From IMG/VR virus record IMGVR_UViG_2695420793_000015, positions 1 through 13,938 of that record: DNA of 13,938 bases, one strand, 5' to 3'. This DNA is from a virus (Duplodnaviria; Heunggongvirae; Uroviricota; Caudoviricetes). Below the pieces are notes generated by a model. It saw nothing but the letters and a program-made list of their open reading frames with translations, had not been told where the DNA came from and did not search any database. A program made the position numbers and the translations under genes. Positions 7,929 through 12,436 of the stretch are shown piece by piece; the stretch's first letter is position 1, and each line of letters begins with the position of its first letter.

Positions 7929-8738
7929 ATGCATCGTATAGACACGAAAACCGCGCAGAAGGATAAGTTCGGCGCGGGTAAGAACGGTTTTACCCGTGGT
8001 AACCCCCAGACCGGCACACCTGCCACCGATCTGGATGATGACTACTTTGACATGTTGCAGGAAGAACTTTGTAGCGTGGTGGAGGCCTCCGGTGCCAGCC
8101 TGGAGAAAGGGCGGCATGACCAGCTGCTTACCGCACTTCGTGCGCTGCTGTTAAGCCGCAAGAATCCGTTTGGCGATATCAAATCGGATGGCACTGTGCA
8201 AACGGCTCTCGAAAACCTTCGTTTGGGGGCAGGCGCTCCAGCTATCGGAATTCCGTTCTTCTGGCCGTCCACAGCGATGCCAAATACAGTGATAGATGAG
8301 TGGTCAGATATGGTGTTTCTGAAATTCAACGGTGCGACATTTTCGGCAACAACTTATCCGAAGCTGGCGAAGGTGATCCCCAGCTTGACGCTAACCGAAG
8401 CTCGTGGTGAGTTTCCGCGTATTTGGGATGATGGGCGAGGTGTAGATGTCGGGCGCGCACTAATGAGCGCACAGGGTGATGCTATGAGAAATATCTCTGG
8501 AACAGTTCGGCTAGCATCCAACTCATATAATCAAAATACAGCAAGGCAAATGACGGGGGCATTTGGATGGAGTGACTCATCGGCTGGAGATGTTACTAAT
8601 TTTTCACTTACAGCTGCATCAAACACATCTAACTATAAAAATGGGGGGTTTACATTTGATTCTTCAACACAGGTTCCAACGGCCTTGGAGAATCGACCGA
8701 GAAACATTGCTTTTAACTTTCTTGTAAGGGCTAAATAA
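7929..8738 (+). CDS. Tail fibre protein (Mu S-like): constant N-terminal part plus the currently expressed variable C-terminal cassette
   Basis: 269-aa ORF with a conserved tail-fibre N-terminus (…[38 protein letters not shown]…) and a Ser/Thr/Asn/Gly-rich C-terminus. GGAG precedes the ATG. A recombination site lies inside the gene at 8206-8231. Confidence 0.85.
8206..8231. repeat. Putative left crossover site of the invertible segment (hix/gix-like 12-2-12: CTCTCGAAAACC-TT-CGTTTGGGGGCA)
   Basis: The half-site TCTCGAAAACC closely resembles Hin/Gin half-sites (TTCTTGAAAACC / TTCCTGTAAACC). The central TT occupies codon positions 2-3 of the stf frame, the same register as in the partner site. 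Confidence 0.55.
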
Positions 8739-9331
8739 TGAAACCTGTTTTTGACGAAAATGGACTGGCTACTGAACCTGGGGAAACTCGTTGTTTCTAT
8801 TACGACGCTGTGACGTCTGAATATATGGGATGGTCAGACGAATATATTAATCTGGGTGTCAGTATGCCAGGGCATTCAACAGATATTGATCCTGGTGATG
8901 AGGTGGCTGGAAAGATTCCAGTATTTACTGGGATTGGATGGGAGCAGCAGGAAGATCATCGCGGGGAAACAGTTTACTCAACTGAAAGTGGTGATGCATC
9001 AATGGTCGATTATATTGGTCCCATCAAGGATGGATTTACAAGCACTGCACCTTCAACGCCATATGATAAATGGGACGGTGAAAAATGGGTGACAGATACT
9101 GAGGCACAGAATATCGCCGTAGTAGAGGCGGCAGAAGCACAGCGGCAGTTTCTGATTGATACTGCAATGGCTTCCATTGGTCTGATCCAACTGAAATTAC
9201 AGGCAGGTCGGAAGCTGACTGAGGCAGAAACAACCCGACTTAACGCTGTGCTTGATTACATTGACGCGGTGACGGCAACAGATACCAGCACCGCACCGGA
9301 TGTCATCTGGCCTGAACTGCCGGAGGCGTAG
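8738..9331 (+). CDS. tfa: Tail fibre assembly protein (Mu U-like)
   Basis: 197-aa ORF whose ATG overlaps the stf stop (TAATG). The C-terminal region (…LDYIDAVTATDTSTAPDVIWPELPEA) is typical of tail-fibre assembly chaperones. Confidence 0.8.
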   Translation: MKPVFDENGLATEPGETRCFYYDAVTSEYMGWSDEYINLGVSMPGHSTDIDPGDEVAGKIPVFTGIGWEQQEDHRGETVYSTESGDASMVDYIGPIKDGFTSTAPSTPYDKWDGEKWVTDTEAQNIAVVEAAEAQRQFLIDTAMASIGLIQLKLQAGRKLTEAETTRLNAVLDYIDAVTATDTSTAPDVIWPELPEA

Positions 9332-9746
9332 GCCATTCAATATCTGGAGCACTGGAGGAATCAACCAGTTCCAGTGCGTCCAGATAATCCAGCCACAAAT
9401 TATATTGCGCCAGTTCCTCACCTTTCAGGCGACCAATCGCTGCTTTACCAGGCCATTGCTTACTGTATATGTATTCGTTGACCTGATTAATCAATTGCTG
9501 CTTTTCCAGTTCGGCTGCGGCAATTTGTTCCTCATGAGTTGGCGGTGGAATTTCCCCCCAGGTGGGAAGGCCATCATCACCCGCGATGCGTACTTTCCCT
9601 TGCAACGTTCTGTCTTCAATAAATTCCAGGTAAGTGTCATATGTCACTTCGACAATATCAGCAAGTTCCCATCCGGCCTGTTCATATTTCGCCACATCAT
9701 TTTTAGCGAAAAAACTGTTATTTGAGGCGCTATAAACTATTTCCAT
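9303..9746 (-). CDS. Alternative tail fibre assembly protein (Mu U'-like), convergent with tfa
   Basis: 147-aa minus-strand ORF with a Tfa-like C-terminus (…LWLDYLDALELVDSSSAPDIEWPTPPAVQAR). It overlaps the 3' end of the plus-strand tfa by 29 bp and sits directly downstream of the minus-strand fibre cassette. Confidence 0.8.
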   Translation of the reverse strand: MEIVYSASNNSFFAKNDVAKYEQAGWELADIVEVTYDTYLEFIEDRTLQGKVRIAGDDGLPTWGEIPPPTHEEQIAAAELEKQQLINQVNEYIYSKQWPGKAAIGRLKGEELAQYNLWLDYLDALELVDSSSAPDIEWPTPPAVQAR

Positions 9747-9747
9747 A

Positions 9748-10323
9748 TTAATACCCTACTGCAAGATAAAAAACAGATTCACCAGCATCCTGGGATGCTG
9801 TCCCTGGAACGCCAGACCATACCTTATTTATAAAAGCAAAACCTGTTTTACTGAGGTCTGACGCTCTGTACATTGGGCTGAATATCCAATAGTTGGATGC
9901 ATATGTTTGTCCGAAAACAATTCCATAGCACTGGTTTGTAAATGGCGTAGAAAATAATTTTCCACCATTACCAGCGATAGCACCGAATCGCATCTGGAAT
10001 CCATTCGGGAAATTAATTCCGCCTGCCGGTGAAGACCAGTAAGACATATCAGGTATTTGCCCAGCACTATTTCCCACGTTTTTTGTTGCAACGGTTCCTA
10101 ACCCAAGATTAGCTCTTGCGTCAGATTTATTTGTTAACTCATAAAGATTATTTGCCTTTTGAAGTGCTCCTGTTATGCGTAAATCATCACCAGCGGCAAC
10201 GGTTCCGACTGTCGTGCCCACATCCCTTTTCGCCGCTTCTCCTAAACCAACCTTTGAAATATTTTTCTGAATCAGGTGATATTTCGCCTCTTCTCCTGTT
10301 TTTACAACAGGAGAAGCACTCAT
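9748..10323 (-). CDS. Alternative tail fibre C-terminal cassette (Mu S'-like), silent in this orientation
   Basis: Gly/Asn/Ser-rich fibre-tip-like sequence on the minus strand. The part from about 10249 downward would fuse in frame to the constant stf N-terminus after inversion. The N-terminal 24 codons and the ATG at 10323 lie outside the segment and are probably not a real start. Confidence 0.7.
   Translation of the reverse strand: MSASPVVKTGEEAKYHLIQKNISKVGLGEAAKRDVGTTVGTVAAGDDLRITGALQKANNLYELTNKSDARANLGLGTVATKNVGNSAGQIPDMSYWSSPAGGINFPNGFQMRFGAIAGNGGKLFSTPFTNQCYGIVFGQTYASNYWIFSPMYRASDLSKTGFAFINKVWSGVPGTASQDAGESVFYLAVGY
10237..10262. repeat. Putative right crossover site of the invertible segment (TTCTCCTAAACC-AA-CCTTTGAAATAT)
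   Basis: The half-site TTCTCCTAAACC matches the left site's half-site at 9 of 11 positions and resembles gix. The central AA on + (TT on -) is in inverted orientation to the left site and in the same codon register in the minus-strand cassette frame. Confidence 0.5.
10290..10316. repeat. Perfect 27-bp palindrome (CTTCTCCTGTT-TTTAC-AACAGGAGAAG) overlapping the invertase ribosome-binding site
   Basis: Two 11-bp arms are exact reverse complements around a 5-bp centre. The right arm contains AGGAG, 9 nt upstream of the pin ATG. The arms share the CTTCTCCT motif with the right crossover half-site. Confidence 0.6.
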
Positions 10324-10885
10324 GATTTACGGGTATGTTCGTGTATCAACAAATCATCAGGATACAGAGTTGCAACGTCTTGCACTTGAGTCAGCTGGCT
10401 GTGAGCGAATTTATGAAGAATATGCCAGTGGCAGAACAGCTAATCGCCCTGTGTTAAAGGAATTAATTACGGTGATGAAAAGTGGAGATGAGTTGATTGT
10501 CTGGAAGTTAGATCGGATAGGGAGAAATGTGCTGCATGCGCTATTGATGTTTCAAAATCTGCACGAAAAAGGTGTTAATTTTCGGAGTATTACAGATGGC
10601 GTAGACCTGAAAACAGCAAGTGGTCGCTATAATTTCCGTAATATTCTTTCTGCTGCGCAGTATGAATCTGATTTGAATAGCGAGCGAACTTTAGCTGGTT
10701 TGGCTATTGCCAGATCCAAAGGCCGGATTGGTGGGCGTAGACCGAAGTTTAGCGACGAGCAGTGGCAACAGATGGGAGCGCTCATAGCGGCAGGGAAATC
10801 ACGGCGTTATGTTGCACGTATCTATAACGTTGGGCTATCAACCCTATATAAACGATTTCCTGTTACTGGCATTCAAACGAAATAA
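10322..10885 (+). CDS. pin: Serine-recombinase DNA invertase (Pin/Gin/Hin family)
   Basis: 187-aa ORF with the resolvase/invertase N-terminus (YVRVSTNHQ, catalytic Ser) and the characteristic C-terminal DNA-binding region (…GRIGGRRPKF…VGLSTLYKRF…). It lies beside the invertible tail-fibre segment. Confidence 0.9.
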   Translation: MIYGYVRVSTNHQDTELQRLALESAGCERIYEEYASGRTANRPVLKELITVMKSGDELIVWKLDRIGRNVLHALLMFQNLHEKGVNFRSITDGVDLKTASGRYNFRNILSAAQYESDLNSERTLAGLAIARSKGRIGGRRPKFSDEQWQQMGALIAAGKSRRYVARIYNVGLSTLYKRFPVTGIQTK

Positions 10886-10925
10886 TTTAAAAGCAATTTA
10901 AAGAGTTATTTGTCTAATGTTGGAA

Positions 10926-10961
10926 GCCGCAGCCACGTCGTATGCAAGAACGTGCTGCGGC
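10926..10961. other. Imperfect hairpin between convergent pin and dinI-like genes; possible bidirectional terminator
   Basis: GCCGCAGCCACGT …loop… ACGTGCTGCGGC (one bulge). There is no clear U-tract on either strand, so terminator function is uncertain. Confidence 0.25.
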
Positions 10962-11028
10962 TGGCTGGCGAACTTTCGATAGTGCGAGTATTGAATGATT
11001 TCCAGCCGTTACCGATTTTACGTGTTAA

Positions 11029-11277
11029 TTAGTGAACAAACCACTCGTCAGCAGATTCCCAGGTATCTTTCAGAGTCTCCTGAACAAAAGTTTTTGCAGA
11101 ATCCTTATCTGCGGTGCGTGTAACAGAAAGGCCATCGTTGCTGGTGGCTTTTACGATCACCTCTACATCGTCATAACGTTTACTGATGCGTCGGGTTAAT
11201 TCTTCCTTTAACGCATCCACAGCACCGGTTGGCATTTTAGTCATTTTTTCTTTGGCTATACAGATTTCAATACGCAT
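11029..11277 (-). CDS. dinI: DinI-family DNA-damage-inducible protein (prophage-encoded)
   Basis: 82-aa ORF ([31 protein letters not shown]…LSV…[17 protein letters not shown]) that aligns along its whole length with E. coli DinI as recalled from memory (MRIEVTIAK…GAIDAL…ELSRRI…QETWESADDWFV). Two LexA boxes lie upstream. Confidence 0.85.
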
Positions 11278-11313: not shown

Positions 11314-11342
11314 TTTTTAACTGTATGGATAAACAGTGTCAA
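11314..11342 (-). promoter_or_regulatory. Putative SOS-regulated sigma70 promoter of the dinI-like gene (-35 TTGACA, 17-bp spacer, -10 TAAAAA)
   Basis: On the minus strand a perfect TTGACA (11342..11337), a 17-nt spacer coinciding with LexA box 2, then TAAAAA (11319..11314). The -35 overlaps the integrase stop codon. Confidence 0.4.
11319..11338. promoter_or_regulatory. LexA box 2 (AACTGT-ATGGATAA-ACAGTG)
   Basis: Second CTGT-N8-ACAG motif, 8 bp from box 1, lying in the spacer between the predicted -35 and -10 of the dinI promoter. Confidence 0.65.
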
Positions 11343-12436
11343 GAGGTCTTATTTCTGCTCCTTTGGAGCTCTTCAAAACGATTATGTAAAGATTTCGGAT
11401 ACAGTTCGGTATATACCTGCCATAGCACGTTTAATGAACGATGCCCTGTAACCTGGGCGACTTCCTCAATACTAAAACCAGCCTCAAATAAGCGACTTGC
11501 CCCTTCTCTACGCAAATCATGGTATCGCAGATCTTTAATACCTAATTTGCTTCTTACCCTCTGGAATCCCGCAGTAACAGAAGTGCTGTTATATGGAAAA
11601 ATGAATTCTGATTTTTTGGGTTGTCGTTGGACGATATCCCAGGCTTCCCCAAGCAAGGCTACTTTCATATGGTTGCCTTCCTTTTTACGTGGATCTTTCC
11701 TGTCTCTTACGAGTATGGATTTTTGTTCCTGATCGAGATCCTCCCATCGTAATCGGCATACTTCACCGATTCGCATACATGACCACACAGAAAATTTGAG
11801 GATATCAACGAACGGAATTTTTGAGCATTTATGTGTAGATCGTTGTTGAAGACCTTCAATGAGCATGTCCAGTTCATCAGATGCTGGTCTACGATTACGA
11901 CGATTTGATTTACCAATTAAACCAAGTTTAAGTAGATATGGACGAGCGGCTTTTGCTGGGTTTGATGTGTAATTAATTCCATATACAGGTTTGGCAGCAT
12001 CCAGAACACTGCCAAGATAACTAACATCGTGGCTAACTGTAGCTGGACCTGCACCAGCGTTGTTTCTTAGCCTGCAATGTTCAATTACGTCATTTTCTGT
12101 CAGTTCAGATAGTTTGATCGCGGAGATGTCACTATCCATAAGCAGTTCCAGCACATATCTTTTAGTACGGCCTGCTTTACCTCCGGCATTTGGGTCATTT
12201 AAATATTTGTGTAGTAAGTCACGGACTGTAAGTCCGTCAACTGCATTTGATGATGGAATGCCATATAGATCTAATTCCATCACTTTCTGTGTGCCCCATG
12301 TTTTGGCATGAGCATGTTTAGGGAATGTTTTGCTTTCCCTGTAAGTGATAACACCTTTTTCTTTGATAATCACATTACAGCGATAGCGTGGTGTGCCATC
12401 GGATTTTAGTCGTTTCTCTATGTTATAGTACGCCAT
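11339..12436 (-). CDS. int: Tyrosine site-specific integrase (dusA-associated type)
   Basis: 365-aa ORF with a tyrosine-recombinase catalytic region (…LRYHDLRREGASRLFEAG…VTGHRSLNVLWQVYTE…). It is the last prophage gene and is divergently oriented from dusA. A GAGG ribosome-binding site lies upstream. Confidence 0.9.
   Translation of the reverse strand: MAYYNIEKRLKSDGTPRYRCNVIIKEKGVITYRESKTFPKHAHAKTWGTQKVMELDLYGIPSSNAVDGLTVRDLLHKYLNDPNAGGKAGRTKRYVLELLMDSDISAIKLSELTENDVIEHCRLRNNAGAGPATVSHDVSYLGSVLDAAKPVYGINYTSNPAKAARPYLLKLGLIGKSNRRNRRPASDELDMLIEGLQQRSTHKCSKIPFVDILKFSVWSCMRIGEVCRLRWEDLDQEQKSILVRDRKDPRKKEGNHMKVALLGEAWDIVQRQPKKSEFIFPYNSTSVTAGFQRVRSKLGIKDLRYHDLRREGASRLFEAGFSIEEVAQVTGHRSLNVLWQVYTELYPKSLHNRFEELQRSRNKTS

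Follow-up and report, generated by a model that had tools for sequence, protein, structure and literature searches.

A conserved palindrome over the ribosome-binding site of a PinL-type DNA invertase gene as a candidate RNA hairpin limiting invertase translation

The invertase gene and its surroundings

The window, i.e. the whole stretch of 13,938 nucleotides analysed here, represents that end of a prophage which carries the tail and tail-fibre genes. The prophage is a very close relative of the Escherichia phage SKA5, with 99.5% identity from the right crossover site onwards. The open reading frame (ORF) at 10322–10885 on the plus strand encodes a PinL-type serine DNA invertase of 187 amino acids, which begins with MIYGYVRVST and contains the Pfam domains Resolvase (PF00239, E 3e-36) and HTH_7 (PF02796, E 7e-12). 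The protein is 100% identical to the invertase of SKA5 and approximately 80% identical to PinL of phi80. On the 5' side, the tail-fibre gene (7929–8738) is followed by its assembly gene, and a second, inverted assembly gene (9303–9746, minus strand) is paired with a fibre C-terminus, the silent tail-fibre copy that appears in the ORF list at 9748–10323 (minus strand). From there on, the order is inverted fibre pair, right crossover site, 27-nt spacer, palindrome, and invertase gene. On the 3' side of the invertase, the window has a DinI-like gene and a gene for a tyrosine integrase, at 11029–11277 and 11339–12436 (minus strand), suggesting that Mu-like tail genes have been joined to an integrase-type prophage end, as in SKA5.

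The right crossover site is the 26-bp sequence TTCTCCTAAACC-AA-CCTTTGAAATAT at 10237–10262 (plus strand), recognised from the sequence and from comparison with relatives; homology to relatives that carry other tail-fibre alleles begins at this site. The candidate left crossover site, CTCTCGAAAACC-TT-CGTTTGGGGGCA, is located at 8206–8231 (plus strand) within the tail-fibre gene. Compared with the inverted right site, it has the same TT core and a poor overall match (15 of 26 positions). In one relative (L005), the fibre tail that is active in the window is present as the silent copy.

The silent fibre ORF crosses the crossover site, and its start, CAT on the plus strand, overlaps the ATG of the invertase. 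In the RefSeq records of related loci, the fibre genes are annotated as either overlapping this region or starting past the crossover site. Minus-strand coding through the palindrome was considered and rejected: the ATG of the ORF is not preceded by a ribosome-binding site, and in most relatives a stop or a frameshift disrupts the frame, so that the silent-fibre start near the invertase ATG is not a conserved gene start. This should be a warning to annotators who meet an ORF extending from a silent tail-fibre copy up to the start codon of the invertase. Translational coupling through the ATGA overlap with a plus-strand ORF (10116–10325) was also rejected, as in most PinL variants this frame is limited to 5–14 codons and lacks a start. 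In addition, we observed a minus-strand promoter-like site at 10322–10349 (-35 TTGATA, -10 AATCAT) that covers the start codon of the invertase; it is a consensus match only, and a promoter at this position would begin a leftward RNA at the palindrome.

The palindrome and its relation to the crossover sites

Immediately upstream of the invertase gene, at 10290–10316, there is a perfect palindrome of 27 bases. The left arm CTTCTCCTGTT (10290–10300) and the right arm AACAGGAGAAG (10306–10316), both read on the plus strand, are complementary at 11 of 11 positions and enclose the 5-nt loop TTTAC (10301–10305), which is replaced by TTCAT, TTCAC or TTTAT in relatives. The original prediction had described 11-bp complementary arms around a 5-bp centre, and both its coordinates and its sequence proved exact. 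The same is true of the Shine-Dalgarno sequence AGGAG, which had been placed in the right arm and occupies 10309–10313, with a gap of 8 nt to the invertase ATG at 10322. The left arm is complementary to it, and the stem ends 5 nt before the ATG. In the 13.9-kb window, the palindrome is the sole perfect inverted repeat with arms of at least 9 bp and a loop of 3–10 nt, and arms of at least 11 bp occurred in 2.7% of 300 dinucleotide-preserving shuffles.

Two other classifications of the element were tried and rejected. For an intrinsic terminator, a G+C-rich stem and a run of T would be expected, and here CACTCATG comes after the stem on the plus strand and AGGCGAAA on the minus strand. When known RNA families were searched in Rfam 15, sau-53 was returned alone, at chance level (E 0.77), with 16 bits where the gathering score is 100.

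The best sigma-70-like promoter in front of the gene spans 10254–10283 (plus strand) and consists of a -35 hexamer TTGAAA (10254–10259), an 18-nt spacer, and a -10 hexamer GATATT (10278–10283). It was identified by consensus only, the match is weak (9/12), and three promoter-like sites were found in the region against 2.9 expected from shuffles. The same -35/-10 geometry was present in 9 of 11 divergent spacer variants. The -35 hexamer lies inside the outer crossover half-site and the -10 hexamer ends 6 nt before the palindrome; the predicted +1 is at approximately 10290, the first base of the palindrome.

The arms of the palindrome had been reported to have a motif in common with the crossover half-site, and this was confirmed. 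The window contains exactly three copies of CTTCTCCT, one in the crossover half-site (10236–10243) and one in each arm, all within 80 bp; 0.23 copies are expected by chance, and none of 200 shuffles contained three. Moreover, the 16-nt sequence TTTCGCCNCTTCTCCT is present as a direct repeat with 15 of 16 positions identical, the copies at 10228–10243 and 10282–10297 being 54 bp apart (two copies in 0 of 200 shuffles). The first copy is inside the invertible segment, where it covers the inner half of the crossover site and tail-fibre coding sequence, and the second forms the left arm of the palindrome and the sequence flanking it on the 5' side. The inner copy is confined to one class of tail-fibre allele and is missing in others. 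The repeat may stem from an old duplication or from short-patch conversion.

Among 32 distinct PinL-type crossover sites, the TTCTCC positions carried 0.4–0.9 bits, as compared with 1.0–1.7 bits for the AAA(C/G)(C/G) core. The palindrome has the outer TTCTCC(T) and the dyad symmetry in common with hix/gix/cix/pix sites. Unlike these sites, which are 26 bp long with a 2-bp core and the sequence AAACC..GGTTT, it has an odd 5-bp centre and an inner part of GTTTT/AACA-, and its TTCTC motifs are 25 bp apart instead of 26. The palindrome was rejected as a crossover site of this type on the grounds of its centre, its span (25/27 bp and not 26) and the missing core, which bears out the earlier argument that an odd centre speaks against such a role.

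Conservation of the palindrome in PinL-type loci and beyond

The element can already be found in a public database. In the GenBank entry of phi80 (JX871397 / NC_021190), it is annotated as "IR3", a repeat region upstream of pinL, and no label beyond repeat region is given; the function discussed below is a proposal. Like the element of the window, to which it is 100% identical, phi80 IR3 has 11-bp arms and a 5-bp centre and ends 5 nt before the ATG of pinL. The phage has lost the invertible segment, whereas the window has retained it. When the window and phi80 (L001) were compared over 10236–10885, identity was 100% in 10266–10325 and 10626–10685, 97% in 10596–10625, and approximately 47–83% elsewhere, with most of the coding region at approximately 70%. 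The patchiness suggests recombination inside the invertase gene, and the contrast between a leader of 100% identity and a coding region of approximately 70% suggests that the leader has been swapped as a mosaic module.

In 80 IMG/VR loci encoding invertases 78–100% identical to that of the window, the palindrome was present in every locus that was read at the invertase start. It is also carried by the Citrobacter phage Omnitron, and it is found in lambdoid and Mu-like phages alike. Among 5426 complete E. coli genomes, approximately 1000 contain a region related to this one, and at least seven close relatives were among the matches listed in a scan of genome contigs. A metagenome scan for the pattern TTCGCC N28-36 ATGATTTAYGG gave almost exclusively chance matches, together with one true variant that was already known.

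When 46 unique PinL-type loci were aligned, the arm cores of 10 bp were invariant save for two singleton substitutions, in line with the conservation in related invertase loci that the original prediction had named as a point to check. By comparison, codon third positions were invariant in 2.7% only. The loop length was fixed at 5, with two of the five loop positions variable, and the spacer that separates the palindrome from the crossover site was largely rewritten, existing in about ten versions, while the arms were kept intact. Covariation in the PinL clade is scarce, as eight of the 11 pairs never vary. One of the 11, the outermost, is compensated: the C-G of the window type corresponds to U-A in every other type, so that both sides have changed, which may reflect a single event. 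The two singleton variants (L056 and L027) give C·A and A·C mismatches rather than G·U pairs, and leaders of the PinL2 type have an extra terminal G·U pair that extends the stem to 12 bp. The strict invariance of both arms exceeds what base pairing alone would require, as judged from this alignment.

These data bear on the idea that the palindrome is a functionless by-product of the way in which the leader arose, for example from duplicated tail-fibre DNA, and that it is uniform as a result of recent recombination of the leader module. The 16-nt direct repeat in common with the neighbouring tail-fibre sequence and the identity of the window and phi80 leaders next to far more diverged coding sequence would both fit such an origin. 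Still, the arms have stayed intact in all of the approximately ten leader types, although the spacers have diverged strongly, the outermost pair shows compensation, and most relatives have a broken minus-strand reading frame. A relic of tail-fibre coding DNA was also sought directly: when the minus-strand peptide was compared by tblastn with 50,697 phage records, it matched pinL leaders only, and no tail-fibre gene in that collection contained it internally. We consider a by-product very improbable.

Outside the PinL clade, a weaker homologous dyad is present at the same place in e14-type pin genes (pinE, Shigella-type and P2-like prophages, and a P1-like plasmid). These dyads read TTCCTG-CTTTTGT-CAGGGA and CATC(C/T)CC-...-GGGG(G)ATG, and they have a TTTT-rich centre as in the window. 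Their core has changed from CUCC/GGAG to CCCC/GGGG; the intermediate CUCC/GGGG, with a U·G pair, is common, and a C·A combination was seen once. The MFE z-scores of the e14-type leaders ranged from -1.4 to -2.9. In these loci, the arms change (TCCCC/GGGGA, TTCCTG/CAGGGA) and the crossover half-site stays TTCTCCCAAACC. For members of the Pin/Gin family other than the PinL clade, the probability that the Shine-Dalgarno sequence is paired was no higher than in composition-matched shuffles, and this measure was rejected as family-wide evidence. As the leaders are pyrimidine-rich and their shuffles pair the ribosome-binding site almost as often, we make no claim of a family-wide hairpin.

Folding z-scores gave no significant structure in the gin leaders of Mu and D108, and P1 differs in gene order, cin being located upstream of the crossover site. 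The nearest outgroup is a sister clade of invertases that start with MIIGYAR, represented by Morganella and Kluyvera proteins of 68–72% identity. The Morganella leaders have no hairpin over the ribosome-binding site, and the Kluyvera leader has a short hairpin only, upstream of the ribosome-binding site. In two other members of this sister clade (L457 and L458, IMG/VR contigs, 270–300), a hairpin of 11–12 bp with unrelated sequence covers GAGG and the start region, with z-scores down to -3.05. Its stem contains three G·U pairs and is fully paired as RNA, as opposed to 8 of 11 positions as DNA. Some genes of the sister clade have no hairpin over the ribosome-binding site. Since such a hairpin is absent from Mu and D108 gin, from Morganella and from some sister-clade genes, it is not needed for invertase function. 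Its recurrence with a different sequence in the sister clade is the best argument for selection acting on the RNA.

The original prediction had taken the shared motif to suggest that Pin or a host factor may bind the palindrome as an operator, and this part was not supported. According to such a model, a dimeric protein (the invertase on a pseudo-site, or a host factor) would bind the dyad from approximately +1 to +27 and repress transcription, resulting in autoregulation. The perfect dyad, with both arms invariant beyond the needs of pairing, would suit this role, and so would the fixed loop length of 5, the TTCTCC(T) in common with the inner crossover half-site, the co-occurrence of the element with the PinL clade, and its placement relative to the predicted promoter. 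There is also a precedent in the Tn3/gamma-delta resolvase, which represses its own gene from res subsites with non-canonical spacing.

On the other hand, TTCTCC is the least informative part of the crossover sites, the conserved AAACC/GGTTT core is missing from the palindrome, and the half-site spacing is 1 bp short (25 vs 26 bp). Hin-family proteins read the A/T minor groove, and the palindrome has a G:C pair at that position. In the Pin clade the arms change but the crossover half-site does not, and the sister-clade hairpin is not a palindrome at the DNA level. A phage-specific repressor cannot explain an element that occurs in both lambdoid and Mu-like phages. As for host factors, a LexA box was rejected: the consensus is CTG-N10-CAG, and the CTG (10296–10298) and CAG (10308–10310) of the palindrome have a gap of 9 nt, 1 bp short. 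Taken together, an operator at the palindrome appears unlikely. An invertase bound at the right crossover site would cover the predicted -35 hexamer and could repress its own promoter in that way; if the invertase autoregulates, the crossover site would thus be a better candidate than the palindrome.

A predicted RNA hairpin over the ribosome-binding site

When folded as RNA, the palindrome forms a hairpin of -15.4 kcal/mol, with an 11-bp stem and a 5-nt loop, and the structure is the same in the MFE and centroid predictions. The folding z-score was -3.1 on 62 nt and -4.8 to -5.2 on the 41-nt leader, and none of 500 shuffles was equally stable. All five bases of AGGAG are paired in both the MFE and centroid structures; the probability that the Shine-Dalgarno sequence is paired was 1.00, a value that was reached in 0 of 200 shuffles of the upstream sequence. 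The view that the transcript sequesters its own ribosome-binding site, which had been put forward in the original prediction, thus gains support from the modelled stability, the position of the Shine-Dalgarno sequence in the stem, the conservation, the one compensated pair, and the sister-clade hairpin.

We consider it probable that the RNA hairpin occludes the ribosome-binding site and throttles the translation of the invertase. In the leader of the invertase mRNA, the arms would pair into the 11-bp stem with its 5-nt loop and bury the Shine-Dalgarno sequence, so that 30S subunits would rarely load and only trace amounts of invertase would be made. This, in turn, would keep inversion of the tail-fibre segment infrequent. 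If the predicted promoter is real, the hairpin would be at the extreme 5' end of the mRNA and could also shield the message from 5'-end-dependent decay. A stem of such stability would be expected, after the established work of de Smit and van Duin on ribosome-binding-site structure, to cut initiation by orders of magnitude, and a strong drop in initiation would fit an enzyme that is needed in trace amounts. The hairpin, its computed stability, its position over the ribosome-binding site and its conservation are observed, and we infer that the left arm is part of the transcript, that translation is reduced, and that the frequency of inversion is linked to it.

The presence of the left arm in the transcript depends on where transcription starts. 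The -10-like hexamer lies 6 nt before the palindrome in 9 of the 11 spacer variants, and a start directed by it would cause the whole stem to be transcribed. No terminator-like sites were found on either strand in 9700–11100; since the tail genes and the invertase are not separated by a terminator, transcripts that read through into the gene would also contain the hairpin and be silenced likewise. A small dyad, GGTGA-TATT-TCGCC at 10275–10288 (plus strand), could form a helix (P1) upstream of the palindrome. One of its pairs varies across relatives, being C-G in nine, U·G in five and U-A in one, which is weak evidence but hints at a second RNA helix. If P1 forms in RNA, it would conflict with the predicted transcription start.

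The same features could be read to mean that the hairpin serves in read-through insulation only, with a native start inside or after the left arm. Native mRNA would then be translated, and transcripts from outside (from the tail-fibre operon or the invertible segment) that contain both arms would be silenced, much as IS10 and IS50 transposase genes are protected. The late tail genes and the invertase have no terminator between them, the base-pair series in P1 suggests that upstream RNA exists, and in e14-type pin loci an extended -10 sequence, TGGCATCAT, judged by eye, abuts the left arm and would place the start in or after that arm. In the PinL clade, however, the -10-like hexamer 6 nt before the palindrome means that the predicted native mRNA would fold as well, and we regard insulation alone as unlikely.

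The palindrome could also be a regulated gate instead of a fixed brake, if a protein (the PinL invertase or a host factor) recognises it, as DNA or as the stem-loop in RNA, and thereby opens or closes invertase synthesis. Strict invariance beyond the needs of pairing could mean recognition by a protein, and we would give this variant a small chance. If it were true, tail-fibre switching would proceed at a rate that depends on the state of the cell or prophage, similar to the control of mom by Com in Mu.

Cells must keep the amounts of DNA invertases tiny, since with an excess the host-range switch is scrambled and the chromosome can be rearranged, and there is little documentation of what sets the dosage of Pin-family enzymes. 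For one widespread clade, which includes pinL of phi80 and many E. coli prophages, the hairpin is a simple and testable explanation. The gain in knowledge would be modest, as the mechanism is of a familiar type. Our literature searches on invertase autoregulation or leader hairpins found nothing relevant, and the paper on PinQ/e14 makes no mention of this region (PMC12529663).

Three known systems may be compared with the present one. The Tn3/gamma-delta resolvase at res is likewise a small serine recombinase that controls its own gene through sites beside the crossover site. That control is exerted on DNA through bona fide recombinase binding sites, whereas the palindrome is devoid of the conserved core of invertase-family sites. 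In the mom gene of Mu, a translation-initiation hairpin is opened by Com. As in the predicted invertase leader, a stem-loop hides the translation start signals, and mom occupies the corresponding part of Mu-type genomes, com and mom being located after gin in D108. For mom, a dedicated activator protein is required, whereas in the window the invertase is followed by the DinI-like and integrase genes and not by a com-like gene. In IS10, where the effect is known as 'fold-back inhibition', and in IS50, hairpins hide the ribosome-binding site of the transposase genes. The similarity is that an upstream pyrimidine stretch is paired with the ribosome-binding site, and that the gene encodes an enzyme which rearranges DNA and whose dosage has to be kept very low. 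The difference is that in IS10 and IS50 the native start is located downstream of the pairing partner, so that only transcripts from outside are silenced, whereas the start predicted for the PinL-type invertase would include the whole stem.
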